From Octopus vulgaris (taxonomy: Eukaryota), in contig OX597818.1 in NCBI GenBank assembly GCA_951406725.2, positions 32,116,001 through 32,180,000 of the forward strand: a DNA stretch of 64,000 nucleotides, written 5' to 3'. Below are positions 8,941 to 64,000 of the stretch, one piece after another. Made by a program: the position numbers and the translations under genes. The stretch's first letter is position 1. Every line of letters begins with the position of its first letter. The notes below the pieces were generated by a model. That model was not told where the DNA came from, did no database searches, and saw only the letters and a list, made by a program, of their open reading frames with translations.

Positions 8941-9207
8941 GAAATAATAATAGTAATGATTATGATAATGATTTCATTTATTCGCCACAAGGGCGAAGGA
9001 TTAGAGGGACAATACAAGGACAGACACAAAGTGTTGGGGTTTACAAATAATTCGTTCGTTTATTGGCCACAAGGGCTAACAAAAATCAATTAAAACATAA
9101 AGGGACAAAACACAGGACGAAAGTTACAATGAAATGATAATAGAAATAAATAAGTAAGACATAAAAATAAAGTATACACGGTATACACTGAAAAAGAAGG
9201 GACATAT

Positions 9208-27632: not shown

Positions 27633-27682
27633 TATTATATAGTTAGGAATTATGAAAAATTGTTTAAATATGTTGTGTATTA

Positions 27683-27887: not shown

Positions 27888-27937
<50 letters not shown>

Positions 27938-28109
27938 GTATACGTATATACGACGGGCTTCTTTCAGTTTCCGTCTACCAAATCCCCTCACAAGGCTTTG
28001 GTCGGCCCGAAGCTATAGTAGAAGACACTTGTCCATGGTGCCACGCAGTGGGACTGAACTCGGAACCGTGTGGTTGGTAAGCAAGCTACTTAACACACAG
28101 CCACTCCTG
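27683..28109 (-). mobile_element. SINE-A, full length
   Basis: Homology to 268-686. Confidence 0.9.
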
Positions 28110-30750: not shown

Positions 30751-30983
30751 AAAGGCGGCGAGCTGGCAGAAACGTTAGCACGCCGGGCGAAATGCGTAGC
30801 CGCATTTCGTCTGCCGTTACGTTCTGAGTTCAAATTTCGCCAAGGTCGACTTTGCCTTTCATCCTTTCGGGGTCGATTAAAGAAGTACCAGTTACGCACT
30901 GGGGTCGATATAATCGACTTAATCCGTTTTTCTGTACTTGTTTGTCCCCTCTGTGCGTAGCCCCTTGTGGGTAGTAAAGAAAT
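30751..30983 (+). mobile_element. SINE-B monomer with 17 bp TSD
   Basis: agatat(a/t)ttcttatgct at 30734-30750 and 30984-31000. Confidence 0.9.
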
Positions 30984-31204
30984 AGATATTTTCTTATGCT
31001 TTACAGATTCCGCCAGTAGCAGGAGTAGCAGAAGCAGGAGGAGGAGGAGGAAGAAGAAGAGGAGGAGGAGGAGGGGAGGAAGAAGAAGAAGAAGAGTAGG
31101 AGGAAGAAGAGTAGGAGGAGGAAGAGTAAGAGATGGAGGAAGAGTAGGAGGAGAAGAGGTGTAGTAGTAGTATCGAAATTTCTTGAAAGCACAAGTAGAA
31201 AGTG

Positions 31205-40633: not shown

Positions 40634-41024
40634 TAGGCGTAGGAGAGGCTGTGTGGTAAGTAGCTTGCTTACCAGCCAGATGATTCCGGGTTCAGTCCCA
40701 CAGCGTGGCACCTTCGGCAAGTGTCTTCTACTATAGCCTCGGGCTGACCAAAGCCTTGTGAGTGGATATGGTAGACGGAAACTGAAAGAAGCCCGTCGTA
40801 TATGTGTGTATATGTTTGTGTGTCTGTGTTTGTCCCCCCAGCATCACTTGACAATCGATGGTGGTGTGTTTACGTCCCCGTAACTTAGCGGTTCGGGAAA
40901 AGAGACCGATAGAATAAGTACTAGGCTTACCAAAAATAAGTCCTGGGGTCCATTTGCTCGACTAAAGGCGGTATTCCAGCATGGCCACAATCAAATGACT
41001 GAAACAGGTAAAAGAGTAAAAAGA

Positions 41025-41025
<1 letters not shown>
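40634..41025 (+). mobile_element. SINE-A, full length
   Basis: Head to gagtaaaagagt tail. Confidence 0.9.
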
Positions 41026-41065
<40 letters not shown>

Positions 41066-41109
41066 AACATATATATATATATATATATGCATATATATAT
41101 ATATATATA

Positions 41110-42819: not shown

Positions 42820-42906
42820 ACGGGCGAATAGAGTTGACCGCACATACACTTTCTCACTCACTTTTCTAGGCAACCTTTTATAGACGGTATAAATTAGAAC
42901 GTTGAA

Positions 42907-43322
42907 AGGCGGCGAGCTGGCAGAATCGTTAACACGCCGGTCGAAATGCTTAGCAGTATTTCGTCTGTCGCTACGTTCTGAGTTCAAATTCCGCCGAGGT
43001 CGACTTTGCTTTTCATCCTTTCGGGGTCGATTAAATAAGTACCAGTTACGCACTGAGGTCGATATAATTGACTTAATCCATTTGTCTGTCCTTGTTTGTC
43101 CTCTCTGTGTTTAACCCATTGTGGATAGTAAAGAAATAGGTATTTCGCCTGCTGCTACGTCCTGAGTTCAAATTCCGCCGAGGTCGACTTAGCCTTTCAT
43201 TCTTTCGGGGTCGATTAAATAAGTACCCGTTACGCACTGGGGTCGATATAATCGACTTAATCCGTTTGTCTGTCCTTGTTTGTCCTCTCTGTGTTTAGCC
43301 CCTTGTTGGTAGTAAAGAAATA
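42907..43322 (+). mobile_element. SINE-B dimer with ~21 bp TSD
   Basis: TSD ggtataa.tt.gaacgttgaa at 42886-42906 and 43323-43343; internal junction aaagaaatag|gtatttcg. Confidence 0.9.
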
Positions 43323-43829
43323 GGTATAATTTGGAACGTTGAAGTTATTGAGATTCCTTACCATGGAAAGTAAAACAATTTATTCTTTGTGTTATACTTA
43401 GAATCATTTTTTAAAAAATATTTATAATATAATCAGTTATTATGTTTTGTGATTCCACCATTAATTTTATAATGTTTGATATTATACACAGACACTTATG
43501 CATATATATTTATATATCACACATACAATGCAACTACTTTCAAATGATTTCATATGCTATAGTTTTTCTTGTTTAAGAAGGATGGATGTCAAATTTTGAC
43601 ATTCGAGAAAGGATTTCAATTCGACAGGTTCTCTTTTGCTCCGACCAAATAAATAAAAGGTTAAATTTCAGCAGCCGGGAAAGGGTGAGACTCTTCGCTA
43701 TTTTGGATACAAGTCTATACGCCGTGGTTAAGAAAAGAGGTCTGATGTTTCAAGACTGTACCTTCCTCTGATGAAGGGCGAGTGTTGTCTTAATAGCGAT
43801 CTGTCAGTAATAGTTATTCTACCTATAGA

Positions 43830-44045
43830 GTGACGAACTAGTAGAATCGTTAGTACGCCGAGCAAAATGCTTAGCAACATTTCGTTTGTCTTTACTTTCC
43901 AGGTTCAAATTCCGCCAGTGTCGAATTCGACTTTCACCCTTTCGGGGTCGATAAAATAAATGCCAGTTGAGTACTGGGGTTGACGTCATCGACTTTTTCC
44001 CCCTCCTCAAAATTGCTGGCCTTGTGCCAAATTTTAAAACCAATA
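43830..44045 (+). mobile_element. SINE-B (short-tail subfamily)
   Basis: Domain plus aaattgctggccttgtgccaaa tail. Confidence 0.85.
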
Positions 44046-45113
44046 TCTATTCTACCAGTGGCATTATGAAATTTATAGGCTTCATCAAGTTTGTTAATGT
44101 CAAGGATGTACTTATTTTTAGTGGGTATAACTTTAGTTCAAATATTTCGTATTCTTCAAATTTTCCAGTATTCCTCAAAAAACGCAGAAGAAATTGAAAA
44201 GAGAGATATTTTTAGAAACATTCTAAAGTTTTACTTGTCTCTTGGAGGTTTCTGCAGGGCTAACATGACATGTGACAAAATAATGGTTTCAAATTTTAGC
44301 GGGAGAGGTTGAATAAATAACAGTAATTCGCAAAAGAACTCATAAACTTAAAGATAATTAGGTTTTAGAAATGATATCAAATGCATTGTATAATTGTATA
44401 ATGAATTAATTCTATGTAAGACTATACGACTCACAGCAAGATTAAATTTATATTCGTATATAGAATACATTTGATGTTGATCTTTTGTCTGTATTCTATT
44501 TCATTGACCTTTTCCTAAGTCACCTCCCCAAAACTGTTTCTATATTTACCCAGTACCAATTACATATGCAGAAATAATTATGTTTTTCAACATATGGAAC
44601 GTATTGCTGTTGGCTATTCACAGTGCATTCCATATTTTGCTTACTGAGAAAACTATTTTTAAAATTATTTCATTTTTTTTTTTTTTCAATCCTACTTAAA
44701 ATATTATTCTCTAATCCTCTTATAATCCAAGTACGAATTTATCTCACTGAATTTTACTCTGGATTTTCCCAAATATTTTTATGTAGACAACATTCTAAAA
44801 TAACGGTTGTCTTACGACGTCGCCTTCATTGTCATCATCGCCATCAACAATTAAATAGCCTAAGTATTATTCACTTCCACATTTAATTTTGTCTTAATTT
44901 CATTCTTTTCCAACTATGTCATCGTTCTCAATTCTTTTCCCTCTTCCACATACACACACACACACACACACACACATACTAACTCTGTCCTATTTCCTCT
45001 TCACCATCTTTTTTGTATCCTTCATCTCATCCATATTCCTTCTTTTTCTTTCTTTCTTTCTTTCTTTATTACCTTCTGTATATCGTTCTCACTTCATCGT
45101 TCACCATCCTACT

Positions 45114-45156
<43 letters not shown>

Positions 45157-45879
45157 CCCCCCCTCTCTCTATCTATCTATCTGTCTGTCTGTGTCAGTTC
45201 TTCTGTCTATTTGTCTGTCTGTCTGTCTGTCTACCTGCCTTTCTGTCTTTCTGCCTGCCTTTCTGTCTGTCTTTCTGTCTGCCTTTCTGTCTGTCTGTCT
45301 GTATGTATGTATGTCTGTCTGTCTGTCTGCCTGTCTGTAATATGTACAAATAATAAGATCATTTTAATATGCCTAACGGTTAGATCACACGTTGCAGTTT
45401 CAACTCGCGGATGAAGCTAATTTATTTCACTTACATCGCCAACACCACTCGTTGAGAAAGAAAAAAAGGCGACACTTTCTATTTCCCTCTTTTACAATAT
45501 ATGGACTTCATATCTAGACTTCAGAAGCAAACATGTTTTGGAGTCAAACAGTAGAGTGCAAGAATCTACCTCTTTGTCAATGAATGTCAGTGACCCGGTT
45601 TCCATTTACGGTTGATGAAAATTCAATTTTACTCCCATAATTGATTTGCAAGATGTACTGTGAGCATACTTTACATATTGAGTCTTTGAAAATACCATCT
45701 CTTTAAACGTTCCCGAAAAATAAAACCAGTGTTACATTAATATGAAAGCGACAGAGTGGAAGAAAAAGTAGTAGGTTAGAATATTTTAAACATTGGCGTT
45801 ATTGGTTCAAAAGTCGCCTAAGTTGACCTTTTTAATTGTATATCTGCACCAGAAAAGTTCCCCACCAAAGCGCAAGCCT

Positions 45880-46226
45880 TTACTCTTTTTACTCTTTTAC
45901 TTGTTTCAGTCATTTGACTGCGGCCATGCTGGAGCACCGCCTTTAGTCGAGCAACTCGACCCCGGGACTTATTCTTTTGTAAGCCCAGTACTTATTCTAT
46001 CGGTCTCTTTTGCCGAACCGCTAAGTGACGGGGACATAAACACACCAGCATCGGTTGTCAAGCAATGCTATGGGGACAAACACAAACACACACACGCATA
46101 CATATATATATATACATATATATGACAGGCTTCTTTCAGTTTCTGTCTACCAAATCCACTCACAAGGCTTTGGTCGGCCCGAGGCTATAGTAGAAGACAC
46201 TTGCCCAAGGTGCCACGCAGTGGGAC
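45880..46226 (-). mobile_element. SINE-A, head truncated
   Basis: Homology to 268-625. Confidence 0.9.
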
Positions 46227-46448
46227 GTGTAGGTATGTGCAAGACCAGCATTTTCCCCGCATGCTAATCTCTCCTCTCCCAGCTACAGTTATAGCTAAGA
46301 GGACAGGCAAGGCCAAAATACTTTGATACCAATATTATCACCCTCTTCCTTTCATGCTGGGCCCTTATTCAGTTCTAGGAGAAAAAAGCAAAGCTACTCA
46401 TCATTCTCCATCCGGTTTCCGCTTCCTTACTAATCTAGAAACTAACAT

Positions 46449-46750
46449 GTGGCAGCACATGGCCTAGTGGTTAGAGCAGCGGGCTCGCAGTCGAGGGATT
46501 GCGGGTTCGAATATCAGACCGGGTGGTGTGTGTGTTTATGAGCGAAACACCTAAGCTCCACGCGGCTCCGACAGAAGGTAGTGGCGAACTTCTGCTGACT
46601 CTTTCGCCACAACTGTCTCCCACTCTTTCCTCCTGCATCTTGCAGCTCGCCTGCGACGGACCGGCGTCCCGTCCAGGTGGGGAACATGTACGCCAAGGAA
46701 ACCGGGAAACCGGCTCTTATGAGCCAGGCATGGCTCGAGAAGGAACAAAT
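46449..46750 (+). mobile_element. SINE-C
   Basis: tggcctagtggttag A box, ggttcgaat B box, gcgacggaccggcgtcccgtccagg module (V-domain-like). Confidence 0.85.
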
Positions 46751-47671
46751 AGCAAACAACAGAAACTAACTCGCCGGTAACATGGCCAGAAGCGATGGTA
46801 CTATGTTGATAAACAAGCTTCATACACGAAAAAGAAAAAAAAAAAAACGTTTAAGTAATGGTGGTTCATGGAAGCAACTGCCGCTTTATATAGGCAAATG
46901 CAAAAACCAGCCGTTAACAGTGCCACCAGGCTATAGTGACAATGATGGCGACAGAAAGAATGATAGAAAAGCGACAAAAAGATAAAATGAGCTACAAAAT
47001 TCTGATTTTATCAACCTGTCGGACTATGAAGAGCTAATAGAAAATCGATTAAACTGCAGTCTTAGGAGTTCTAATATTATTGTCAGAATACAGAATAGCA
47101 AGGTGTGCTTATACTCTTTTAGACAATACCTGTTCTGATGCCACCACAATAATGTTCAAGAAAGCCGCCACCTAAATCGTTGTTAAAATAATTCAGAGTG
47201 AATCACCAGACAGCAGTAAATTACATTGTCAAATGACAGTTAGACGCCATAATAGCAGAACCCCTTTACAAAGCAATATCACGTAGTGCAGTATTTCAGC
47301 ATAGATCAACATACCAAAGAAATACAAAATCACGTCTTGGTGAGATACACAGATGGTGTAAACCTCTGGGTTGCAGAAGGAGACATCATTAGTTGAAATG
47401 CAGGGAGGTGTTAGAGATGTACAAACACATATTTAGAACCTCTGATCAGTAAAGAAGGTATCCCCGTATTTACGGCCCCTAATTTATAATAACTCACACA
47501 AATGAGCCCATCTGGTGAAGATTTATTAACACAAAAGGGCTATGGAGTAAGTATTAAGACATAAAGCAGCTACAACGGTTCCACTTTTCCACTTATTTGT
47601 TCTGTTATAGTTATTATTGTCCTTCTGTTATATTATTTTGTCCCTGTGTTGTACACTACTTATTTCTTTTC

Positions 47672-47972
47672 GCTCTTTTCAAGCCTAGCCAGGTAAATGG
47701 GCTCGGTTTCCCGGTTTCTGTGGCGTATGTGTTCGCCCCAGCTGGACGGGACGCCAGTCCATCGCAGCGTTACTCAAGAAACAGGAAGAGAGAGTGAGAG
47801 AAAGTTGTGGCGAAAGTGTAAAACAGGGGTCGCCACCACCCGCTGCCGGAGCCTCGTGGAGCTTTTAGGTGTTTTCGCTCAATAAAACACACACAGCACC
47901 CGGTCTGGGAATCGAAACCGCGATCCTACAACCGCAAGTTCGCTGCTCTAACCACTGGGCCATTGCGCCTCC
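47672..47972 (-). mobile_element. SINE-C
   Basis: Reverse complement of the tRNA-like head and shared 3' module. Confidence 0.85.
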
Positions 47973-48002
47973 ACATACACTACTTATTATTCTGTGCGTA
48001 TA

Positions 48003-48237
48003 CCTATTTCTTTACTACCCACAAGGGGCTAAACACAGAGAGGACAAGCAAGAACAGACAAACGGATTAAGTCGATTACATCGAGCCCAATGCGTAACTG
48101 GTACTTAATTTATCGACCCCGAAAGGATGAAAGGCAAAGTCGACCTCGGTGGAATTTGAACTCGGAACGTAGCGGCAGACGAAATACTGCTAAGCATTTC
48201 GCCCGGCGTGCTAACGTTTCTTCCAGCTTGCCGCCTT
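48003..48237 (-). mobile_element. SINE-B monomer
   Basis: Reverse complement of 30751-30983. Confidence 0.9.
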
Positions 48238-48669
48238 GCTTATACCTTTGCTCGTTGACACAAATTTTTCACCGATCGAATTTTATTCAGTCGACCCGAG
48301 GCTTGAGGTCATTTTCCTGAGGTAACATTAAGCTGGATATGGCACAATATAGTTAGTATTATAACATTGTAAATCAAGGTACAGATGGGCTATCAAATGG
48401 GTAGTAGACCGAAAATGTTCGAGAATGATTTTATAACAAGAAAGATTCCAGCGAAGATGGCAGCAGATGGGAATGACATTTCACGTCATATATATTTTTC
48501 AACAAGCAGGAATTTTGACAGATTCAAGAGCCTCAACATAGTAAAGCGAAAGAAAGAAAAAATATACATCTAATTAATTGTACAATTGTAAACTCAACTT
48601 CCCAACCAAAACCTATACATACTTACATACATACATACCTACATGCACACACACTCACAAACACCCCAC

Positions 48670-48757
<88 letters not shown>

Positions 48758-49354
48758 GACACACGCATACGTATGTGTACATTGTGGCACAAACATAAAA
48801 TGACATAGCTATATACATTCAGATAGCGAGTGACAAGTATACTTTGCTCCGCATACAATTATTTCCTATCTTGTAGAGCTAGTCGGTGTCGTTTATAAAA
48901 TATTTACACAAACTTGGTTCATTATACATATGCCATGTGTATAGAAAATTATATTTACTTTCATTATACGTCTTTACACGTTTGCACAATCGGACTTCAA
49001 ATGCATACGTAGAAGTACGCGAGTTCACGAACACACACAAGTGCGCACAAAAACACACGACACACACACAGAAAACAACAAAACCTAACACACACACACA
49101 CACACGCGCGCACACACAGAGAAACACTTTCATACTGAAATACATAGAATTTTCAAAAACATATGTCTTATTTTACGAACACAATCATTACGTGGCCCAC
49201 ACTTCTATTTATTTAAAAGATGAATGCATACAAAAACTTGGCAATCATAAACGTATGTTTGCTCACGCCCCACAGCGTACCTAGTTACCCTGACACAGAA
49301 GCTCTCACATCCAACCACAAACAATTAACTCAACCACACATACACACACACATG

Positions 49355-49432
49355 ATATATATAAACAAACATACATACAGTGATTATATATATATATATT
49401 AATATGTATAAGTATATATGTATATGTATATG

Positions 49433-49467
<35 letters not shown>

Positions 49468-49594
49468 GTGCATGTATATAGGTGTATGTATATAGGTGTA
49501 TGTATGTATATATATATATATATATACATATATATTCTCTAAAAATCCATAAGTCAGAGAAAAATAGGCACTGGTATATTTACCAATAGAGTGT

Positions 49595-49625
<31 letters not shown>

Positions 49626-49644
49626 AACAAACGTACATACAGTG

Positions 49645-49683
<39 letters not shown>

Positions 49684-49745
49684 TCTAAAAATCCGTAAGT
49701 CAGAGTAAAATAGGCACTGGTATATTTACCAATAGAGTGTACACA
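49355..49745. repeat. tandem duplication with microsatellite-variable units
   Basis: ataaacaaac.tacatacagtgat and ttctctaaaaatcc...ccaatagagtgtacac each occur twice. Confidence 0.85.
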
Positions 49746-50189
49746 CACGCACACACACACGCACACACACATGCGCGCGCGCACACACACACACACTCAC
49801 ACATATATATGAGAGAAAGAAAGAGAGCTTCGTTTGCACGTTCATTTGTTTTTAAGTCTGTTTTTGCATACTGCTGGATGGGTTTAGCGAATGCCTTATA
49901 GAGGAATTTATTGCTTTACCGCGACATGCTCTTGCTGTCGGTAATCTTTACCTATTTTTAAATAAGAATGCCATTTTTTCGCACTTTTTCACTACTGCAA
50001 AGCCAGCGCACGATGGTTTATTAATAGGAGAAATAAAACATCACGCGAGATTCGGAGAAATCCACACTCACAGGCAAGTTCATACCTAAATACACATACA
50101 TGTGTGCGCACGACAAGCCTTACTTCTGCTTCGGTCTATCTAATCTGCTCACACGGCTTTGGTCGGTCCGGGCTGTAGTAGAATATATA

Positions 50190-50437
50190 TTAATATATAA
50201 TAAAGCCTAGCCAGGCTCATGGGCCCGGTTTCCCGGTTTCTATGGCGTATGTGTTCCCCAGCTGGACGGGACGTCAGTCCATTGCAGCGTTACTCATTTT
50301 TGCCAGCTGAGTGGACTGGAGCAACATGAAATGAAGTATTTTGTTCAAGAACACAACGCGTCGCCCGGTCCAGAAATCGAAACCACAATCTTACGATCAT
50401 GGTGCCGACACCCTAGCCAATAAGCCACGCGCCTCAC
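50190..50437 (-). mobile_element. SINE-D with 13 bp TSD, nested in a SINE-A remnant
   Basis: agtagaatatata at 50177-50189 and 50438-50450; tRNA-like head, CORE-like middle, SINE-C 3' module. Confidence 0.85.
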
Positions 50438-51082
50438 AGTAGAATATATAACACCCAACAAATATTTAACTTCTTTGTAATCATATTTCTCCTAGATTAC
50501 ACGAACTATATTTCAATAATTTTTTTTAAATAATGAAGAATTCAGTGAAATAACTTTATTCATAAGCTAGCGTTTGGAAGATAAATTAACACGAAATTAA
50601 ACGCTCTGTTTTCAATTAGATCATATTTAAACAGGAATTTTGTTTCAGAGAAACAGGGACAGTCCCGGGAGGTTTCATATAATAAAGTTTAAACAAGCTT
50701 CTTAAATGTATCCATTTGCAGTTCTACTCTTCTAATGAAAAAGTAATATGATGTTTCCAATTATACTTGCCATCGTGGTGTTTCTTGTAATAAAGTGAAG
50801 TATTTAGAAAGAAGCATTCCGCTACCAAATGATACTAATATAGAACAAAATATTGGAACATAAACTGGTTTAGTCTTCTCTTCAACCAATAAGTTTTAAC
50901 AACCTTAGTAAAATTTTTTTCAAATTGTTTCAAAATCTTCTCCGGCCAGAATTAGAGTTTGGATGTGGTTGACTTTGAATAAAAACGATATTTGTCCGTT
51001 AATCAACTCCACTGCATCATGAACAGTCGATAACGCTGTTATTCAAAATCTGCCATATCTTAACTGTATACACCCAAAAGTA

Positions 51083-51704
51083 AGGCGGCGAGCTGGCAGA
51101 AACGTTAGCGCGGCGGGCGAAATGCTTAGCGGTTTCGTCTGCCGTTACGTTCTAAGTTCAAATTCTGCTGAGGTCGACTTTGCCTTTCATCCTTTCGGAG
51201 TCGATAAAATAAGAACCAGTTACGCACTGGGGTCGATATAATCGACTTAATCCGTTTGTCTGTCCTTGTTTGTCCTCCCCGTGAAACGGCGGCGAGCTGG
51301 CAGAAACGTTAGCGCGCCGGGCGAAATGCGTAGCTGTATTTCGTCTGCCGCTACGTTCTGAGTTCAAATTCCGCCGAGGTCGACTTTGCCTTTCATCCTT
51401 TCGGGGTCGATAAATTAAGTACCAGTTACGCACTGGGGTCGATTTAATCGACTTAATACCTATGTCTGTCCTTGTATGTCCCCTCGTGTTTAGCCCCTTG
51501 TGGATAATAAAGAAATAGGTATTTCGTCTGCCGCTACGTTCTGAGTGCAAATTCCGCCGAGGTCAACTTTGCCTTTCATCCTTTCGGGGTCGATTAAATA
51601 AGTACCAGTTACGCACTGGGGTCGATATAATCGACTTAATCCCTTTGTCTGTCCTTGTTTGTCCTCTCTGTGTTTAGCTCCTTGTGGGTAGTAAAGAAAT
51701 AATT
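51083..51704 (+). mobile_element. SINE-B trimer with 16 bp TSD
   Basis: tatacacccaaaagta at 51067-51082 and 51705-51720. Confidence 0.9.
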
Positions 51705-52598
51705 TATACACCCAAAAGTATTATATTTCGTGTTAGCATCGATATTTTGACATCATCGATATTTTGACATCATATTTGGACACACTTCGGATTCATTCAA
51801 CATTTTTGGACTCAGCATCTTCATTTATTTCGCAATCTATTTAGAATCAGAGGCACAAAAATAAGAAATAAACTTTGCAACCAAGTAGAGTAAAATTGCT
51901 TCGCCAAACCGTACAAGTATTGCATGCTGTGCATCTCGGAATCTCATATTTTTTTAAAGCGTACTCTCGGCAAGCAAAATTTCTAATATGAAAACTGGAA
52001 ACAGTATTGAACTGTTTCTTACTATAATCCTCAATCATTCAGTATTCCGTTTTTCTTCTAAATTTCTAGTTTGCTTACTTCATCTAACTGAAGAAAATTT
52101 GAGAAAATTTTAGTATAGGTAACAATAAGAGTGTTTTCTCTCAGTAAAAACGTTTTTCAAAGCGACATAACCATAAAATTAATTTTACTGAAATATATAA
52201 TCTTACGAATAGAATTGAAATTCTCAATTTCATAAAATGTGGTTCTTTTTTGTATCCTCTTTGTCAAACCCTTTACGTTTTTCACATACACAATATTTCA
52301 TTTCCCTGTTCATTATTCTTCTGACAATTGCAGAGATGAGACTGACGTAATTCAAAAGATTTTTAGCTGTATTCATTTCATAATTTATTTTTTTTATTAA
52401 ATAATTCCAGGACTGACTCCCTTAAGGTACACATACATATACCTTAATATATATACATATATATAGGTCTATGTATATACATATACATATATCTATATAT
52501 GTATATGTATATATATGTGTATATATATGTATTTATGGATATATATATATATATGTGTGTATATATATGTATATATATGTATTTATGGATATATATAT

Positions 52599-52634
<36 letters not shown>

Positions 52635-52869
52635 ATATACATATACACACACACACATATATATACATACATATATACATATATCCATATAAATATACAT
52701 ATTTAATATTGTGGACTAATGGGTATATGTCGATTAGAGCGCTGATGTGTTGAGCTGAGCACTGACACGGTTTGGGCTACCACAGTTGGGGTATATTTCC
52801 GTTGGATCTACTTCAGGAATTCCGCAGTGTTAGTTGAGATGATAATAATAATTGATTCAATAAACAAAA

Positions 52870-53104
52870 GGATTTGATATTAGTCTTTATGTAGTACGAC
52901 GGTCGTTTCGACACATCCTGCTACTGTCCCTTATGAGTGGGATTCTAAGCATCATGCTGTGTTGCATCCATTTTTGCAGTGTGTGTCACATCAGGTACAT
53001 AATTGGATGCAACACAACATGATGCATAGAATCCCACCCATGAGGGACAGTAGCAGGATGTGTCGAAACGATCGTCATGTAAAATAAAGACTAATACCAA
53101 ATCC
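52870..53104. repeat. foldback (~100 bp arms) containing an HHR-like motif on the minus strand (52894-52998)
   Basis: Minus strand: gtac CTGATGT gacaca...tgtgtc GAAAC GACC GTC gtac. Confidence 0.7.
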
Positions 53105-53117
53105 ATCTTCTGTTTTG

Positions 53118-53478
53118 TGGTGGCACATGGCCTAGTGGTTAGATCAGTGGACTCACGGTCGAGGGATCGCGGATTCGAATCTCAGACCGGGTGATGTTTG
53201 TGTTTATGAGCGAAACACCTAAGTTCCACGCAGCTCCGGCAGAAGGTAATGGAGAAACTTCTGCTGATTCTTTCGCCACAACTTTCTCTCACTCTTTCCT
53301 CCTGCGACGGACCGGCGTCCCGTCCAGGTTGGGAACCTGCGTCGGACCGGCGTCCCGTCCAGGTTGGGAACCTGCGTCAGACCGGCGTCCCGTCCAGGTT
53401 GGGAACCTATACGCCAAGAAACCAGGAAACCGGCCCTTATGAGCCAGGCATGGCTCGAGAAGGAACAAAAAAAAAAAC
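53118..53478 (+). mobile_element. SINE-C with an internal 35 bp triplication
   Basis: Head as at 46449; repeat at 53301-53405. Confidence 0.85.
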
Positions 53479-53896
53479 ATCTGTTTTACTTAATAAATTA
53501 TATATATATATATGAAAAGTTACTTTCAGTTTCCGTCAACCAAATCCACTCAAGACTTTTATCAGCCCGAGGATGTAGCAGAAAATACTTTCCCAAAGTG
53601 CTATGCAGTGCGACTGAACCACGTGGTCGGGAAGCAAGCTTCTTACCATACAGTCACGCTGTTTATTGAAACAGAATGGTGATTTCAAGGAAGGTTTTTC
53701 ACTGTAGGTAGAATAAGTGTTCGCTATGAGTTAAGTAAAAGTACAGATATAGCTATAAATGAAGGCCGTACTTAAGGTTCACGCTAGGTTGGATTCAGTT
53801 ACGTGATTAACATGACACCAAATGATGAGATAAGTTCATATATGGGATAAAAGTTAAATAAAAACTGAGTATGATATATATATATGTGTATGTTTG

Positions 53897-53937
<41 letters not shown>

Positions 53938-54794
53938 AAATATGTGTGTGTGTGTGTGTGTAAATATATGTGTGTATGTGTGTAAATATATATGTGTATA
54001 TATGTATATATATATATATATATGTTTAGGAGAAGTTTTATATACGACCAGTTATTCTAATGCTTTAGGAGAATGATACAAACACATAAATTTCAGAATG
54101 AAGGTTTTTTCGTTAGTAATGGATATTATTATGGAAAAGAGGTAAAACAAAATTATAGTTGAGCTCCATTATAAAATAATATTTGAAGAATAATAAAACA
54201 TTTTTTTGAATGTTTTATTTCGATTTTTTGGGAATTTAAAAAAAAAATTATACACTGTATGATTAAGGTGAAAAGTCAACGTTTTGTTTTTTAAAGATAT
54301 CTATAAAATGTGTATTTTAATACTCGTAAATATTTAAATTTAGATTAGCTGTACAACGTATCCATGTAGTATGTTCAATTTATTTAATATGATAAAGAAA
54401 AAGAAAAGCCAGATAAATTTACGCCTATTGTGTATGAATTAAAAATGTGACTATTAATTTATGGCTTGTGTATAGGTGTCGCACGAAATATGCAATGATT
54501 GTAAAGAATAAAAGGGTGCTCACAACATACTAAAATGCATCTTTATGTACACATTACATATGCACACACGCATAGGTTCGTTAAGAGGCAAACATACACA
54601 CACATATACTAATACAGATAATATGCTAATACTAAATTTATATGAATTATTATCTGAGCAATTTGCAAATAATTTTATTAATTATATTAGAAGAAATATG
54701 AGAAATGGTTTCGTGTTATAAACACCATTTAAAGTTATACTGTTAAATTTTGTTACTAGAAAAGTCACTTTGTAACTAATTGCAGATTAATATA

Positions 54795-54990
54795 ATGCTT
54801 TCAAATTTTGGTACAAGACCAGTAATTTTGGTTGAGGGATTAAGTCGATTACATCAACCCCAGTGTTCAACTGGTACTTATTTCATCGACCTCGAAAGGA
54901 CGAAGAGCAAAGTCGATCTCGGCGGAATTTGAACTCAGAACATAAAGACGGACGAAATACTACTTAGCTGGTGTTTGTCTGGCGTGCCAC
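54795..54990 (-). mobile_element. SINE-B
   Basis: Reverse-complement domain match. Confidence 0.8.
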
Positions 54991-55130
54991 GATTCAGTCT
55001 GAGTTCTATTTATACCGTTTGTTCTGGCAAACCCATATATATTTGTGTGTATGCATGTTTCGTGTGAAGCTGTATATATTTTAAAACGTCGCCCTTTTCA
55101 AGCCTAGCCAGGCTCATGGGCCCGGTTTCC

Positions 55131-55388
55131 CGGTTTCTGTGGCGTATGTGTTCCCCCCTGCTGCACGAGACGCTAGTCCATTGCAGCGTTACTCAAGAAA
55201 CAGGAAGAGAGAGTGAGAGAAAGTTGTGGCGAAAGAGTACAACAGGGGTCGCCACCACACCCTGCCGGAGACTCGTGGAGCTTTTAGGTGTTTTCGCTCA
55301 ACAAACATACACAGCGCCCGGTCTGGGAATCGAAACCACGATCCTCCGACCGCGAGTCCGCTGCCCTAACAGGGCCATTGCGCCTCCA
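55131..55388 (-). mobile_element. SINE-C (3' module extends to ~55091)
   Basis: Closely similar to 47672-47972. Confidence 0.85.
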
Positions 55389-55814
55389 CAGTATATATTT
55401 TGTTGGAGTCAAATTCAGACTTCTCACATCTCGTTCTTTATTCTAAGTGACCTACGTTCTTATGAACTGGTTAACTCTTGCCATACATGGTAGCATACAT
55501 TTACACACATACGAACACTCGTTCACATAAACGTTTATTCACGCATTCACGCACATATACATACATACGACGTTGAAATCAATACGTCTGGTAAAAATGT
55601 ATCACTCAATTTTCATGCAAATTAGACTTGTACTTGATAAAATGTACAAAGATGAATATTTAGCACCCATAGTCCTTTTTTTTTTTTTCTTTAGGGCCAG
55701 ATGGATAATCCATCTTATTTCTGCAACATCTTTTCTGAAATCTCATTAGTTAGTCATCAAGACTGGAGTGTCTTTCAAATATTGTAATAAATTTTTTTTA
55801 TATATATTTGTTTA

Positions 55815-56104
55815 TTTGTTCCTTCTGGAGCCACACCTGGCTCATAAGTGTCGGTTTCCCGGTTTCCTTGGCGTATAGGTTCCCCACCTGGACGAGACGC
55901 CGGTCCATCGGAGGTGAACTGCAAGAGGAAAGAGTGAGAGAAAATTGTGGCGAAAGAGTCAGCAGAAGTCCGCCATTACCTGCCGGAGCCGCGTGGGGCT
56001 TAGGTGTTTCGCTCATAAACACACATATTGCCCGGTCTGAGATTCGAACCCGCGATCCCTCGACCGTGAGTCCGCTGCTCTAACCACTAGACCATGTGTC
56101 TCCG
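55815..56104 (-). mobile_element. SINE-C
   Basis: Reverse complement of 46449-46750. Confidence 0.85.
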
Positions 56105-57773
56105 CTATACATATTCAATATCAGATAAAATTGTATAAAAAATGATTTTTGGTAATAAATCAGATTTGGGCACCAATGGGTGAAAAATAAATAAATATAC
56201 AACAGCGTTGTCTCACTATTCTGTGTTAATAACATTCTTGTGTTTAAGTTACATTTTCTTGTTGAGATCAGTTGATCATATTTTGAAAGTGTTGATTCAC
56301 TAATTAAAGACAGCATAACATCAAAATAAAGTTAAGTGATAAGTTTTCGGAAATGAATACGTAGGAATATGAACGAGAATGCAAATGCCGTAGTGATGCC
56401 CATTCCTCTATCCAGTTTACCCAACTGAAAATGAGAAGTAGTAGAAGCTGGTGATTAAACCAGGGTTGATTGCTTATACGTCATGTAAGCCGAAATAAGT
56501 TGCAGCCAAATGCGCCTGATGATTCGGAAAAAACTTAAGTCTCTAAGTGAATACGAAGTAGAATGCACATAATATTATAAGATAACATCAAAATGAATTG
56601 TATAAATTGGAAATAATTAAGAATAGAAAGAAAAAAATGGAGAGAGGGCTATTCAAGTTTGAATTTAGAGATAAAGATGATATAATCTGGAATCATTATA
56701 GGGTATGTATTTAATTAATTAGTTGAATTTAACACGATTGACAAATAATTGAAAAAAAAAAAAAAAACTAAACTAACATGAATTTAATGAGATAAATTGA
56801 TGGCTTAGTAAGGATATGTAGAAAATTAATTTAAAAATCAATGAATATAATAACTGGAGCGACATAAACTGAGTCAAGGTTTAAACAATTTAATTAAGAA
56901 AGTGGTCTCTGCTTTAATCAAACTTTAGGGTTCATTAATTACTAATGCATAATTACTTCCATGCATGTTTACAAGGTCATACACCCCACCACCACATATT
57001 ATATATGTGTGTGTGCCCCTGTGTGTTTGTGAGTGTGTACTATAGGCTATATATATATATATATATATATATAGGGAGAGTTTACGAAAAAACAAAAGAC
57101 GAAGACAGGTGGTGTACAAAACAAACAGATGTATTAATATAACGCTCAGGAATAGAAAAAGTCTCTTACGTTTCGAGCCTGCGTTCTTCTACAAAAAGGG
57201 ACACAGAAAAAACAAGGAGAGAAAAAAATGTGTGTAGTGGCTAACGATCTATCATGGCGAAAAATACAGGTAAGTTCAGAAAGTAAAAACATAAATATAA
57301 AAATAACAGTTTTACGTAAAATTCAAAGGTTTTTTGACGTCGTGGTGTATTGCAAGGATTTCTCACCAAGAGTAGAGTCCACAATTATCCGTATGTAGGA
57401 GAGGTGCAGCCGGAGGGTAAATATCCAAACGAGAATACGTAAAGGGTAGATAAAGGGTAGATAAAGAATCCAGTGGAGAAGTTCCTGTGTGGTAAGAAAT
57501 GACAGGATCAACATGTGCGACCACGTGAGCGTTTGGATTTTATATATCTCATTAATAGGAATAAAACAAAGTAAACGTCTTCCAAGGTAGTATTCCATAC
57601 GTATTATATGTTATAAATATAAATATAATACACATGATATATACATACAGTCACACAACAGCCGTTTCGAGCAAAGGTCTTGTCAGTGTGATACCGTGCT
57701 TTTATATTGCATTATTCCCGTATGTAGAATCGTATAAAGTATAGGCACTGCACAAGTCAACAACGTTACATTA

Positions 57774-58110
57774 AAATACAATACAGAAAACCACCAAAAA
57801 TAGATGAAAATCGAAAGAAAAAGCTTAGTATTTATTAATCTTGATACCCTAAATTATAATTTTAATAATAATTATTATCTTTGAAGGTTTTTATTCCCAT
57901 GTTGGCCATTTGATAAGTTCGATATTTAAATAACGATCTTATATATATATATATTTAAATATCGAACTTATCAAATGGCCAACATGGGAATAAAAACCTT
58001 CAAAGATAATAATTATTATTAAAATTATAATTTAGGGTATCAAGATTAATAAATACTAAGCTTTTTCTTTTGATTTTCATATATTTTGGGTAGTTTTCTG
58101 TATTGTATTT
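57774..58110. repeat. near-perfect palindrome, ~159 bp arms, 19 bp spacer
   Basis: 57774-57932 versus 57952-58110. Confidence 0.9.
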
Positions 58111-58122
58111 ATATATATATCT

Positions 58123-58517
58123 TTCTCTTTTACTTGTTACAGTCATTTGACTGCGGCCATGCTGGAGCACCACCTTTAGTCGAGCAAATCGACCCCGGGA
58201 CTTATTCTTTGTAAGCCCAGTACTTATTCTATCGGTCTCTTTTGCCGAACCGCTAAGTGACGGGGACGTAAACACACCAGCATCGGTTGTCAAGCAATGC
58301 TAGGGGGACAACACACACACAAACATATACACACACATACATATATATATATACATATATACGACAGGCTTCTTTCAGTTTCCGTCTACCAAATCCACTC
58401 ACAAGGCTTTGGTCGGCCCGAGGCTATAGCAGAAGACACTTGCCCAAGATGTCACGCAGTGGGACTGAACCCGGAACCATGTGGTTGGTAAGCAAGCTAC
58501 TTACCACACAGCCACTC
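58123..58517 (-). mobile_element. SINE-A
   Basis: Homology to 268-686. Confidence 0.9.
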
Positions 58518-58623
58518 CATATATATATATATATTTATCTTTTGAAATATATAGAGAGAGCGGAGTTAAAGTGTGACACACTGACACAGAAATTCGTTTG
58601 GCATCTATTACTACTACTACTAC

Positions 58624-58668
<45 letters not shown>

Positions 58669-58997
58669 CATTATTATTATTATATTCTTGTCAATAGGTA
58701 TGTATATATATCTATCGGTCTATTTATCTGCATAAACAGTAAGGAGATCAGATGAATCACTCAGTGTCCAGTGGTATGTATTTGAAAAGCCAAAGAAATG
58801 CAAGTGTATCGAATACTGTACAATATAAATTCTTGAATTGTTGAAATTATCTCAGCGTCTAGAGGATGTGTGATTACCAAATGGCAATTAAGAACGATAC
58901 ATTTTGGAAAGGGAGATAATCAAGATCCAAATCAGTATCAGGAGTAATATGCCATTGAGGAAAATGACAGGTTTATTATCTGGAGATAAGGGAACAG

Positions 58998-59038
58998 GTG
59001 AAGACATGTGTTTCTGGCTCAGCAGTCTTCATCAGCAC
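58998..59038 (-). ncRNA. hammerhead-like motif with intact core
   Basis: gtg CTGATGA a gac-tgctga-gcc a GAAAC acat GTC ttcac; stems imperfect. Confidence 0.45.
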
Positions 59039-59059
59039 GACAATTGATTGTCCTGCCTC

Positions 59060-59383
59060 GGAAAGTGTAACCTCTCGAAAGAGCTGTTCTTCACTCCTGC
59101 TCCAGAGCGTCGGCTGCGGGGTCACTCCGAAAAGCTCTATCTGCGACGATTTCATCTCAATCGAAGGAGAGAGGCTTTCTCCGTCCGGGTTGCGGATCCG
59201 TGGAATAAGCTGCCGGACGAGATAGTTAAGATGCCGACGACCGCTCGGTTCAAATTCTCTCTTGACCAGAAATGGCCTGAACTCTTTACATGAACACCAC
59301 CCTGTACATAACTCCATGTCCCCCTACATGGCCTTGCCTTTTGTTTTTTGAGCCAAAAAATTAACTTAACTTAACTTAACTAA
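59060..59383 (+). mobile_element. 5'-truncated CR1-type LINE 3' end
   Basis: FFTPAPERRLRGHSEKL..RREAFSVRVADPWNKLP..FKFSLD, short 3' UTR, (TTAAC)n tail. Confidence 0.85.
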
Positions 59384-59654
59384 GTAGCAAAAGAATTTAT
59401 ACAAAAAAAGCGTAAAACACATTTATGGCTTACGTAATTTGCATGATTTATAGAAAAAGGGGCCAAGAGAAATAACTCAGAGTGGACAGTGGCATATATG
59501 TGTGGGTGCTAAAAAGATCCTGGTTTTAAGAGTCTCGCGAAAGTCCTGGCTGGTGGCCCAACCTTCCAAGTTCCTTTGCAGGGCTTAGAAAAAAACTGAA
59601 GAACCACTGCAATAAGTGTGTGAATCTGAGTGAGGAATATACTCTTATTTTTTT

Positions 59655-60046
59655 ACTCTTTTTACTTGTTTCAGTCATTTGACTGCGGCCATGCTGGAGC
59701 ACCATCTTTAGTCGAGCAAATCGACCCCAGGACTTATTCTTTGTAAGCCTAGTACTTATTCTATCGGTCTCTTTTGCCGAACCGCTAAGTTACGGAGACG
59801 TAAACACACCACCATCGGTTGTCAAGCGATGTTGGAGGGACAAACACAGACACACACACTCACACACACACGCACATATATATACATATATACGACGGGC
59901 TTCTTTCAGTTTCCGTCTACCAAATTCACTCACAAGGCTTTGGTTGGCCCGGGGCTATAGTAGAAGACACTTGCCCAAGGTGCCACGCAGTGGGACTGAA
60001 CCCGGAACCATGTGGTTGGTTAGCAAGCTACTTAACACACAGCCAC
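59655..60046 (-). mobile_element. SINE-A
   Basis: Homology to 268-686. Confidence 0.9.
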
Positions 60047-60198
60047 ATGTTGAATAAAATTATAATTAACTGATCCTCCTGCTTTTTCTTTTACTCAAAG
60101 CCACGACTTTTCAGCCCCGCTTCCGTTGTATATGAACAACATTGACAAATACAACTATATCAAACACGGTACAAAAAATTCATGATCTATTATCATTA

Positions 60199-60601
60199 TA
60201 GGCGCAGGAGCGGCTGTGTGGTTAGTAGCTTGCTTACAAACCACATAGTTCCGGGTTCAGTCCGACTGCGTGGCATCTTGGGCAAGTGTCTTCTACTATA
60301 GCCTCGGGCCGACCAATGCCTTGTGAGTGGATTTGGTAGACGGAAACTGAAAGAAGCCTGTCGAATATATGTATATATATATTTGTGTATGTGTATATGT
60401 TTGTGTGTCTGTGTTTGTCCCCCCACCATCGCTTGACAAACGATGCTGGTGTGTTTACGTCCCCGTTTCTTAGCGGTTCGGCAAAAAGAGATCGATAGAA
60501 TAAGTACTGGGCTTACAAAGAATAAGTCCCGGGGTCGATTTGCTCGACTAAAGGCGGTGCTCCAGCATGGCCGCAGTCAAATGACTGAAACAAGTAAAAG
60601 A

Positions 60602-60608
<7 letters not shown>
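60199..60608 (+). mobile_element. SINE-A, full length, followed by (GA)n
   Basis: ggcgcaggagcggctgtgtgg head to gagtaaaagag tail. Confidence 0.9.
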
Positions 60609-60670
<62 letters not shown>

Positions 60671-61867
60671 CACTGCCGCTAAGTCTTTTACAAATTCCTG
60701 CCTGAGTATTTAGCATTTAGTGGATGATAGAGTTCGACAAAAGAGATGCTAGAATAAGTACTAGCCTTACAAAAAGTCCTGGGGTCTATTTCTTCGAATA
60801 AAAAAAACAAAAAACCTTTAAGGCAGTGCTCCAGCATCGCCGCAGTCAAATAACTAAAACAAGTAAAAGAATAAACAACTATGTAAATAGGGAGAGAGAG
60901 AGAGAAAGAGAATGAAGATATTCAGGCGATGAATATTAATGTATAAATATATACATATTTATATATCAATGGTTTGGTTTTTGTCCCTCTCTTTACATGT
61001 ATATATGTATGTATATTATAATTATATATATCTAGCCCAAACGGTTTTATTTGTCTATTTGCATCATCTCTCTCTCATTTACTTTCTCTGTATATATATA
61101 TTTATATATGCTTATAAATCCATATATATATTTATATATACAAATAGCGATAGACGAACAAGACTTCGCTAGTTTACAGACAGGTACACAACGTTTAATG
61201 TCGTCGTTGCTAACGACAACAGCCCTGCGACTGTTAAGACAGCCTTATGCTAATATCAACAGCAAACAAGTATATCGGCGTAGTGAAATATCATAACAGT
61301 CTGATTATATGGCATAGCATTTTAAAAACAATTTCACAGTGAAATGAATAACGCTAATTAGTATTCTGCTGTCGGTTAGAAATTAACTGCTGTAGACACG
61401 TTTTATAATAAAGGAATCCGACAGTCACAGCCCGCACACAGACATTACGCATACATCTTACATACGTAGAAATAGACACACACATTCGTAGAAATAGAGA
61501 GAAATATGTACAAGAATTTAGAGTGACTAATGCAGGGGCGCGTACACACAGACAAATTTGAAATGTTTACCTACAGGAACTGTAATATCGAGAAATAATA
61601 GATTTAAATACTACTCTTCATATATGTTTGACATCGTTTTCTGAAGATGTCGATTGCTAAATAATGTTTTTGATGTGTATTCCTCTACGAATTTTCTATA
61701 TTTTCGCCCCATTCCTTGTATTAATACATAGTGTTACGTTAAATCTTTTTGACTGCATAAACAAAAACATTCCTTACACGTATATATGCAATGTATGTAT
61801 TACATACGATGTATGTATACAATGCATGTATATATATGTGTATATATATATATATATATCTTTTTTA

Positions 61868-62059
61868 ATCTTTTACTTGTTTCAGTCATTTGACTGCGGC
61901 CATGCTGGAGCACCGCCTTTAGTCGAGCAAATCGACCCCAGGACTTGTTCTTTGTAAGCCCAGTACTTATTCTATCGGGCTCTTGTGCCGAACTGCTAAG
62001 TTACGGGTACGTAAACACACAAAGTTACGGGTACGTAAACACACAATGCTTGTCAAGCA
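61868..62059 (-). mobile_element. SINE-A 3' half with a 23 bp duplication
   Basis: aagttacgggtacgtaaacacac occurs twice. Confidence 0.85.
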
Positions 62060-62229
62060 TTTTCCTTTTTCCATGAGAAATTATCAATTATTTATATCAC
62101 TTTTGTTACTAATACCATCTATTTTCAGCCATTTGTGTGTGTTGTTTGTGTCTACATTTTGCCAGTTGTGTGCGCATGTGCGCGAATCTGTGTTGTGCAT
62201 ACGTTTTATTTTCATGCAACCATTACAAT

Positions 62230-62472
62230 GCAACAAGCTGGCGCTCCGAATACCTCAACACTGACAACATTTTTTATTTGCCAAGATCATGCATTTCCTC
62301 AAGAAATGCTTCATTATCAAGTTCTTTTATGTTACGTCGAAAAGTTGTCAAGCATGAAAGAAAATGAGTTCTTTTATGTATTTACGCATTTCTCTATAGC
62401 CTTACATTTATTACTGTATGCCTGAAGATATTTTCACATACGCATAGACTAAAACAAATCTGCAAACTTACG

Positions 62473-62509
<37 letters not shown>

Positions 62510-64000
62510 CTCTAAATGCCTGTGTTGAAGGCTTCAGACATTGCTGATTTGATTACGTTGAGGGTAAAAGTCTAATTCTCAGTCATCCAGAATGTTTCAG
62601 ATAAAGCTGTTCTTACACGAGGTCAGAGGAACAAAGTCATTTCACCAGCTTCAAGCAGTGGATAGTTACGTTTGTGAAATATGAAGAGAAGCTTATATCT
62701 TGCAAAACATATTTAAATGATGTCCAGTGGGTAGCAACACTGATGGAAGCAGATATTTTACAATCACATTCAAAACCGCGAAGCCTCCTCGCAGTTTTGT
62801 TCACATGCAAACAGACATCGGCTAATGATCTCAAGAAGATGCCACCTTAATTCCGCCGAGGTCAACTTTGCCTTTCATCCTTTCAGGGTCGATTAAATAA
62901 GTATCAGTTATACATTGGGGTCGATATAATCGATTTAATCTGTTTGTCCGCTCTGTGTGTTACCTCTTGTGGGCAGTAAAGAAATAAGTATTTCGTCTGC
63001 CTTTACGTTCTGAGTTCAAATTCCGCCGAGGTCGACTTTGCTTTTCATCCTTTCGGGGTCGATTAAATAAGTACCAGTTACGCACTGGGGTCGATATAAT
63101 CGATTTAATCTGTTTGTCTGTCCTTGTTTGTCCCCTCTGTGTTTAGCCTCTTGTGGGCAGTAAAGAAATAAGTATTTCGTCTGCCTTTACGTTCTGAGTT
63201 CAAATTCCGCCGAGGTCGACTTTGCTTTTCATCCTTTCGGGGTCGATTAAATAAGTACTAGTTACGCACTGGGGTCGATATAACCGATTTAATCTGTTTG
63301 TCTGTCCCCTCTGTGTTTAGCCTCTTGTGTGGGCAGTAAAGAAATATGAAGATGCCAGCTTACGTGCTAGGAGACTTATAGAAGACATGGCTGGAAATTA
63401 TAAGCATTGAGTACAACATAATTTCAAAGTTGTTATTCATTTCAATGATAACACCAGCTTCAAATCGATTATTCGGACAAAAGTTTGGCTATGGGTGGAG
63501 TCGAATTGCATAAATATGATTTGTCCAGAATAACCCGTCCCAAGGGAACTAGCTTCCGCCCTCTGAGGTTCAACGTGAGCTGAAAGAAAGACTAAACGAT
63601 TTATGATTAAAAATAGTATTTGATACAAAAATTGTGAAATATGCTTTCGTGAATGATTTGTAGGAAATAATTTTCTAACAAACTTTTTATTGGATGCAGT
63701 TAGGAAACGTGGGGAAAATTGTGGAAATTGTATCTTCAGGTATTGTTGCGATTCTGCCAGGAGGGCAAAAATCTCACAGTACCTTCAAAGTGGCATTGCA
63801 CCTAACCTTTGAGGATACAACAGCAACCTGTTATATTAACAAATGAGCCTGATTAGCGGAAGTGCTAAATCAGTGTTCAATGGTGTCTTGCGATGAGTGC
63901 ACCATGTTTCACAAAGTTACTTTTGAGGCTTCGAATAAAACTCTAAAGCTCTCAAGAAGATAAAATTTCATTTCGGCAGAATAATAATAATTTTAGCTGT
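62230..64000 (+). pseudogene. decayed Helitron RepHel (linker and PIF1-like helicase), runs off the window
   Basis: STLTTFFICQDHAF; LFLHEVRGTKSFHQLQAVDSYVCE; NDVQWVATLMEA; GNNFLTNFLLDAVR (decayed Walker A); SSGIVAILPGGQKSHSTFK; DECTMFHK. Confidence 0.8.
62850..63347 (+). mobile_element. head-less SINE-B trimer with 15 bp TSD
   Basis: gaagatgcca(c/g)ctta at 62835-62849 and 63348-63362. Confidence 0.9.

Follow-up and report, generated by a model that had tools for sequence, protein, structure and literature searches.

A 64,000-nt stretch of the Octopus vulgaris genome (contig OX597818.1, positions 32,116,001 to 32,180,000, here called the window) carries a short interspersed element (SINE) of about 231 nt that forms short tandem arrays with a fixed junction, and the local evidence for multimeric insertion of these arrays is good and rests on five loci. 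With moderate confidence we propose that source loci already carrying the junction gave read-through transcripts, that these were reverse-transcribed into multimers, and that the arrays later grew at the DNA level. The window is AT-rich and microsatellite-rich animal DNA without long genes. Using the first unit of a dimer as BLAST query we found 20 matches in the 64 kb, namely ten units with a young type of tail at five loci and ten older matches with a different tail or none. The element is short, interspersed, multi-copy and non-coding (no coding frame of note), and variable target-site duplications (TSDs), expected at 10–20 bp for a tRNA-type SINE, are present at all five young loci, one of them weak. 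Arrays occupy three of the five young-tail loci (dimer D, 42907–43322; T, 51083–51704; H, 62850–63347) and the remaining two are the monomers Ma and Mb. Positions within units are counted from the G at 42908, and the features are as follows:

42886..42906, + strand: 5' TSD of the dimer, starting with GGTAT, 19/21 match to 43323–43343
42907..43138, + strand: D1, complete unit whose tRNA-like head has a long hairpin and motifs similar to the A and B boxes, followed by body and tail
43130..43147, + strand: junction 1, tail end followed by head position 48/49, a small palindrome containing TATTT
43139..43322, + strand: D2, head-less unit of 184 nt
43323..43343, + strand: 3' TSD of the dimer
51067..51082, + strand: 5' TSD of the array at 51083, 16/16 match to 51705–51720
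51083..51283, + strand: T1, unit with a head, its 3' part cut off at position 202, immediately ahead of the TTT in a TGTTT motif
51284..51287, + strand: four additional bases separating T1 from the complete head of T2
51288..51517, + strand: T2, full unit, its head (51288–51376) a predicted rod hairpin with the loop at positions 43–48
51518..51701, + strand: T3, head-less unit after junction 2 (51509–51526)
51705..51720, + strand: 3' TSD of the array at 51083
62835..62849, + strand: 5' TSD of the head-less array, 14/15 match to 63348–63362
62850..62986, + strand: H1, unit 5'-truncated at position 81
62987..63170, + strand: H2, head-less unit after junction 3, with four derived alleles in common with H1
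63171..63346, + strand: H3, almost identical to H2 and a late duplicate or conversion product of it (2/173 differences)
63348..63362, + strand: 3' TSD of the head-less array
30751..30984, + strand: Ma, young-tail monomer with TSD 30734–30750 / 30984–31000 and tail stem-loop at 30960–30972
48005..48236, − strand: Mb, young-tail monomer, its end GGTAT overlapping an 11-bp TSD

The sequence-only reading had placed a dimer, a trimer and a head-less trimer each within a single TSD, which the alignment of the duplications confirms (19/21, 16/16 and 14/15 matching positions), and its repeat of about 180 nt is indeed a tandem unit with a corrected length of 184 nt. Scores as high as those of the array TSDs were reached by 0.9–1.5% of 1000 random window pairs. 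The monomers show 16/17 (Ma) and 10/11 (Mb) matches, the latter being weak as it falls between the 2.6% and 10.3% bins of random pairs.

The array at 62850 speaks most directly for the insertion of a multimer. The TSD directly abuts position 81 of its first unit, H1, and H2 holds positions 48–80, which a local duplication of H1 cannot supply. Self-insertion into an existing copy would leave an upstream head and this array has none, so that a 5'-truncated complementary DNA (cDNA) of at least two units is the simplest explanation, and a multimeric cDNA would thus have been inserted at least once. To that extent, and at least for this array, the earlier claim that the SINE retrotransposes as multimers holds.

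The near-identity of H2 and H3 (2/173 sites, 1.2%) stands apart from the other 44 unit pairs, which diverge by 6.0–16.2% and mostly by 6–10%; the other adjacent pairs differ at 11/137, 15/183 and 12/182 sites (Fisher p against H2/H3 0.003, 0.002 and 0.012). By this measure H3 is a late local duplicate, conversion product or assembly duplicate of H2. Local duplication or conversion therefore does occur, and unequal recombination is the published account of tandem SINEs (PMC11481361, PMC10702118). That all arrays arose by DNA duplication between GGTAT repeats after insertion, or are assembly errors, nevertheless seems to us the most improbable of the explanations considered. The absence of positions 48–80 from H1 rules out purely local duplication as the sole cause, D1 and D2 have no derived alleles in common and T2 and T3 only one, arrays at three of five loci would be too frequent for slippage between 5-bp repeats lying 184 bp apart, and a divergence of 6.6–8.2% rules out read collapse or stutter for the D and T arrays. 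Unequal crossover after insertion, which had been named as an alternative source of the arrays, can hence explain the third unit at 62850 but not the structure of H1. Elsewhere in the window, local tandem duplications of about 100–145 bp are found at 4615–5012 and 49503–49755 in a microsatellite context, and DNA-level tandem duplication is common in the region.

Four tail-to-internal junctions are identical in form and consist of AAAGAAATA, a purine (R) and GTATTTCG, re-entering the head at 48/49. The first motif occurs 12 times in the window, nine times in young units (four junctions and five element ends) and three times elsewhere, and all four junction copies continue with RGTATTTCG, the H junction differing from the others by an A in place of G. 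The tail-to-48/49 junction is seen in none of the ten old BLAST matches. While the sequence and the re-entry base of the four junctions are as first described, the fourth is not independent since H3 nearly equals H2, which leaves three independent junctions. The chance that three of them hit within 0–1 nt among about 200 positions is about 2e-5 to 2e-4, so common descent or a hotspot is needed. All three are exact and without extra bases, which would support an inherited junction, because identical junctions are taken to reflect one inherited jump and recurring jumps to produce variation (PMC3414825).

By the same logic of PMC3414825 the junction at 51283 looks like the product of a recurring jump, as it carries extra bases. 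It had been described as a full restart of the head, and T2 does have a full head; what has to be added is that T1 is truncated at 202 and followed by four extra bases, which are likely the scar of an end-to-end jump or a re-insertion. That T1 ends inside the second TGTTT, with these bases and a complete head coming next, hints at an end-to-end jump onto an RNA that had been terminated early. Chance or re-insertion with deletion could be alternatives, and template jumping probably made this odd junction.

The relatedness of the units within and between arrays bears on the kind of source that fits. With H3 omitted, the mean distance within arrays is 7.9% (5 pairs) compared with 9.6% between loci (31 pairs). 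H1 and H2 have four derived alleles in common (p 3e-4), D1 and D2 have none, and for the single one of T2 and T3 p is 0.2. T2 equals the monomer Mb at the linked sites 125 and 128, where T3 differs, and T3 is less diverged than T2 (4 versus 10 derived sites). A tree of the 10 units leaves 6/7 inner branches open and is a star apart from a weak H group (84/88). Judged from these patterns, neither a single fixed master nor one RNA per array fits all three loci. Variants specific to a unit position and common to several loci had been proposed as the sign of a fixed multimeric master, and they are hardly seen: D2/T3, D2/H2 and T3/H2 share no derived allele and D1/T2 share one, so that an Alu-like fixed dimer is not indicated, with three arrays giving this comparison low power. 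A tandem source locus is still the best of the three mechanisms first offered (the others being a circular RNA and programmed template jumping), only not in the form of one fixed master, and the dissimilarity of T2 and T3 would fit a heterogeneous source. The alleles shared by H1 and H2 also favour a tandem source, and the near-identity of H2 and H3 shows that local duplication of units happens.

How such a junction could spread may be seen from the 3' end of the element. A stem-loop with CUUGU in its loop is common to young and old tails, and all four of its pairs show two-sided changes; 93% of 44 cells are paired, compared with 23–65% in slid controls, and as the sequences represent two related lineages this covariation is not independent proof. 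D2 and Mb end in GAAAT-AGG-TAT and Ma in GAAAT-AGA-TAT, each overlapping its own TSD, while the last bases of T3 and H3 are A/T-rich. The ending G(G/A)TAT reported earlier is therefore correct for both monomers and the dimer (3/5 ends) but not for the two trimers. TSDs start with GGTAT at 2/5 loci and with GATAT at a third, against a GGTAT background of 0.08% per site (p about 5e-5). Among the old-tail copies a TSD is detectable in 2/5 tested, and its start is AATAT/AATAG-like and matches the copy's own tail end. This speaks for base pairing by the RNA end rather than for a fixed nuclease motif, and suggests that the RNA end primes by pairing to its target.

The same tail is also found outside the SINE:

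8955..9125, − strand: two elements without the SINE head, with the young tail and the CUUGU stem-loop, ending in GAAAT-CAT-TAT and GAACG-AAT-TAT

These are likely the 3' ends of the tail donor or of a candidate partner long interspersed element (LINE), and no coding part ties them to a LINE clade. As these relatives end in (C/A)AT-TAT and not in GG-TAT, the GG at the monomer ends is best read as head sequence derived from the junction, which suggests, from five ends, an origin in junction RNA even for the monomers. Through the junction a 3' end of tail stem-loop, 11-nt spacing and TAT is rebuilt, and the conserved spacing between stem-loop and TAT would explain why only this junction spread. 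The two adjacent tail relatives (8955–9200, − strand) sit in ATT/GTT microsatellites. Next to them on the + strand lie a C-terminal fragment with a 3' untranslated region ending in (AAT)n (9290–9526) and a decayed reverse-transcriptase region broken by numerous stops and frameshifts (9680–11270), both of which resemble R4/Dong-clade LINEs in their motifs. A 127-aa piece of this decayed reverse transcriptase gave no match in Pfam. The R4/Dong-like fragment at 9290–9526 was rejected as partner LINE because its 3' end is different.

The GGTAT starts also bear on a different origin of the arrays, in which a monomer RNA ending in GGUAU primes at GGTAT or at a cruciform apex in an existing head and annealing to the duplicated head sequence gives a seamless 5' join, the old TSD then enclosing the array. 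Three of five targets start with GGTAT or GATAT and the head offers GGTATTT at 48–54, the R2 element forms seamless annealed junctions with as little as 11 bp of homology (PMC11331408), and the body of T2 is of the monomer Mb type while that of T3 is not. However, such self-targeted insertion cannot make the array at 62850, with no upstream head and the TSD flush at 81, and T3 as the presumed older target is the less diverged unit. We therefore consider it improbable as the source of the arrays, and it may account for the first formation of the junction and not for the spread of the arrays.

If the arrays do stem from read-through transcripts of source loci, the junction would have arisen once or a few times, probably by a slip during reverse transcription or by self-insertion at the apex of the head. 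It would have spread since it rebuilt a usable 3' end, with GG-TAT at the relatives' spacing after the CUUGU stem-loop and then TATTT. RNA polymerase III (Pol III) would start at the single A-box head and stop, or the LINE enzyme would prime, at any junction. With variable stops the products would be monomers, dimers and trimers, each ending in GGUAU and priming at a target that resembles GGTAT. Incomplete reverse transcription would lead to head-less arrays, and further units gained at the DNA level would let the units within a source resemble each other. In line with such stops the unit consensus has no TTTT, and it has TATTT at 50–54, hence at each junction, as well as TGTTT at 186 and 201; in mammalian tests TATTT terminated 42–50% and TGTTT 20–40% of Pol III transcripts (PMC8466645). 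Motifs similar to the consensus A box and B box were seen by eye in the head and are putative boxes. No tRNA was found by ARAGORN or Rfam, the latter giving 0 matches at gathering score over the whole window and one chance-level match by E-value over 51000–51800.

Several points weigh against this proposal. There are only five young-tail loci and three independent junctions in the 64-kb window, and the missing position-specific variants across loci together with the star-like tree leave inheritance of a single junction as a presumption. The A for G in the H junction fits it less well, and the similarity of H1 and H2 would be equally predicted by a jump on the same RNA. Two of the five element ends lack GGTAT. 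TATTT is also present in the head, where it would cut full-length transcription, and terminator strength is taken from mammals. GG-TAT could also be the native 3' end of an unseen LINE (AAAGAAATAGGTAT). Finally, the protein searches (3/62 candidates, 47 matches; 3/3293; 3/176) led to 51 distinct database proteins of the SINE family and the junction peptide is present in none of them (47 checked by script, 4 by eye), a low-power test as most frames have stops beside the junction. The named protein matches to SINE translations are from Octopus bimaculoides with 53–85% identity, and a scan of bacterial and archaeal genome contigs gave 0 loci each for the body motif and the junction motif.

The position of the re-entry base points to a second way of making the same junction. 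The first ~89 nt are predicted to fold as a single rod-like hairpin (z −3.05 for T2 and −2.33 for D1), a fold found in 4/5 young heads; Ma folds differently, and four old heads fold no better than shuffles. In this model the loop covers 43–48 and the 3' arm begins at 49, the re-entry base, so re-entry is predicted to fall at the apex of this hairpin. TATTTC at 50–55 and GAAATA at the end of the tail are reverse complements, which makes the junction a small hairpin. T1 has a 2-nt deletion at the hairpin apex (51130–51136), 3/47 database proteins (P0002, P0008, P0031) can be read as an apex deletion of about 4 nt in other copies, and the apex seems to be deletion-prone.

Recurrent template switching guided by this structure, with the LINE reverse transcriptase pausing at the apex and moving on to the 3' end of its own template or of a different SINE RNA, is in our view the main alternative, a tentative one with a modest chance of being correct. 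The switch would be guided by a 5-nt GGUAU match between RNA end and head positions 48–52 or by pairing of the tail GAAAUA with UAUUUC of the 3' arm, which would hold the RNA end beside position 48/49. It is consistent with re-entry at the predicted boundary of loop and 3' arm, with a GAAAU/AUUUC hairpin at all three folded junctions, and with the shared alleles of H1/H2 as a jump in cis and the unshared ones of T2/T3 as a jump in trans. The 51283 junction would likewise look like an end-to-end jump onto an RNA that ended at a weak TGTTT stop, and jumps of R2 in vivo including 'extra template' junctions are documented (PMC3414825, PMC11331408). On the other hand the junctions are exact with no added bases, none of the five young loci is a monomer truncated at 48/49, a very high jump rate per insertion would be needed (3/5), and the junction hairpins are no more stable than shuffles (z 0.09, 0.64 and −1.16). 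In the O. bimaculoides protein P0003 the similarity to the SINE ends at about 48/49, as would that of an apex-truncated monomer, seen here in protein sequence only. In a bolder version, which we regard as rather unlikely, concatemerisation would be programmed by the RNA of the SINE itself. Its tail GAAAUA would displace the 5' arm of the head and dock the RNA 3' end at the apex, and there the LINE reverse transcriptase would jump, or ligation of the ends would yield a circle without a ribozyme.

A circle had also been among the first explanations offered. Here the hairpin loop of the RNA would be cut and the tail ligated to 48/49, giving a circular RNA of 184 nt that is copied by rolling reverse transcription as for non-LTR (non-long-terminal-repeat) retrozymes. 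The fixed junction would be closed by a 5-bp stem, the shared alleles of H1 and H2 would be explained, and 184 nt lies within the 170–400 nt range of retrozymes (PMC7229834). The arrays indeed resemble non-LTR retrozymes in being tandem units of 150–450 nt with a TSD, but the type I hammerhead expected in each unit was found neither by Rfam nor by a scan for its core (10 matches in the window, all outside the units). In addition, full heads are present in two of three arrays and would be absent from a 184-nt circle, T2 and T3 differ at the linked sites 125/128 where T2 equals Mb, and 4/5 insertions, including all arrays, end at the tail and not at random points of a circle. The circular RNA is thus disfavoured, and we consider it very improbable.

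Among published systems the arrays of blood clams (2024, PMC11481361) are likewise enclosed by one TSD, with a first SINE carrying the full tRNA head and followers with the same head truncation. Their first and internal units are also tail-truncated, they make up about 3% of copies, and recombination was proposed. In contrast, the octopus units reach the very 3' end, arrays are present at 3/5 young loci, and one is 5'-truncated, pointing to a multimeric cDNA. The SINE-derived satellites sSat1–3 of squamates (Vassetzky et al. 2023, PMC10702118) are alike in that the same sub-SINE unit of 70–290 nt with the same boundaries recurs at many dispersed loci, often starts inside the tRNA head, keeps box B and expands locally. 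They comprise tens to hundreds of homogenised units in subtelomeric regions, and dimeric retrotransposition was not found among them, whereas the octopus arrays have two to three units of family-level divergence (7.9% within versus 9.6% between, in place of at least four homogenised middle units) and intact TSDs. A large share of copies is multimeric too among the rodent and jerboa SINEs B2, B1 and Dip, whose multimers are head-to-tail, and among dimeric SINEs, for example Alu, and sequential versus multimeric insertion is described as an open question; these units are full length, and the downstream octopus units lack positions 1–47 including the A box (PMC8466645). Non-LTR retrozymes (Cervera and de la Peña 2020, PMC7229834) also form dispersed dimers to multimers of 170–400 nt with TSDs in molluscs, and are defined by a type I hammerhead and a circular RNA, unlike the octopus unit with its Pol III-type head, LINE-type tail and no ribozyme motif. 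R2 similarly makes cDNAs from more than one RNA with seamless homologous joins, but jumps from template 5' ends (PMC3414825, PMC11331408). In limpets a 179-bp satellite derives from the Nin-SINE (PMC11121367).

By eye the body of the array-forming SINE resembles only the 3' part of CORE sequences (a domain of about 60 bp), the 5' CORE motif being seen in another SINE of the window. Programmed jumping is reportedly known from DRT2, a precedent for cDNA from more than one template. No resemblance of the SINE to the 66-bp Meta domain was seen by eye in the bivalve MetaSINE alignments of the PMC4824008 supplement, and three SINE body motifs are absent from the supplement file. The octopus tRNA-type SINEs OK, OR1 and OR2 of Ohshima and Okada 1994 are cited in PMC4824008, PMC4758252 and PMC5804259, and the accessible sections of these and of PMC13295347, PMC13282606 and PMC12988792 name neither the SINE family nor its arrays. 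In the literature searched, which excluded most subscription papers including Ohshima and Okada 1994, we found no report of multimeric octopus SINEs or of a fixed internal re-entry at a SINE hairpin apex. Taken together, the arrays are a variation on the known tandem SINEs of clams and reptiles, the fixed 184-nt apex junction and the 5'-truncated array being unusual.

The window holds further repeats. Old-tail relatives form adjacent head-to-tail pairs at 35865–36296 (+) and 26110–26437 (−), with full heads and unlike the apex junction. A second SINE, abundant and marked by a CORE-like motif and a (TA/CA)n tract in its interior (256–697, 27663–28124, 40615–41097, 45879–46226, 57774–58538, 59637–60641 and others) is presumably OR1/OR2-like. 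Copies of a third, tRNA-type SINE are located at 46447–46761, 47670–47979, 53111–53480, 55089–55390 and 55804–56111; the one at 53111 contains an internal 35-bp unit three times (53301–53408), and the monomer Mb was inserted about 20 bp upstream of the one at 47979. Elements resembling miniature inverted-repeat transposable elements, with long terminal inverted repeats or palindromes, are found at 3224–3601, 14887–15505 and 52870–53104 and at 13189–13583 with 22632–23014.

How dispersed SINEs seed tandem repeats is an open question. The published cases lean on unequal recombination and by their own account cannot tell sequential insertion and a multimeric template apart. With a fixed junction, intact TSDs and 5'-truncated arrays, this SINE family offers an abundant test case in O. 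vulgaris, in whose genome SINEs make up about 12% of the DNA (PMC13282606). Head-less units would be miscounted in repeat annotation as truncated copies or separate families. If the RNA itself programs concatemerisation, programmed repeat synthesis would have a parallel in eukaryotes, and retrotransposition could turn a SINE directly into a satellite. If instead a self-rebuilt 3' end and a leaky terminator are enough for the spread of a junction, they would provide a simple and general route from a SINE to a satellite.

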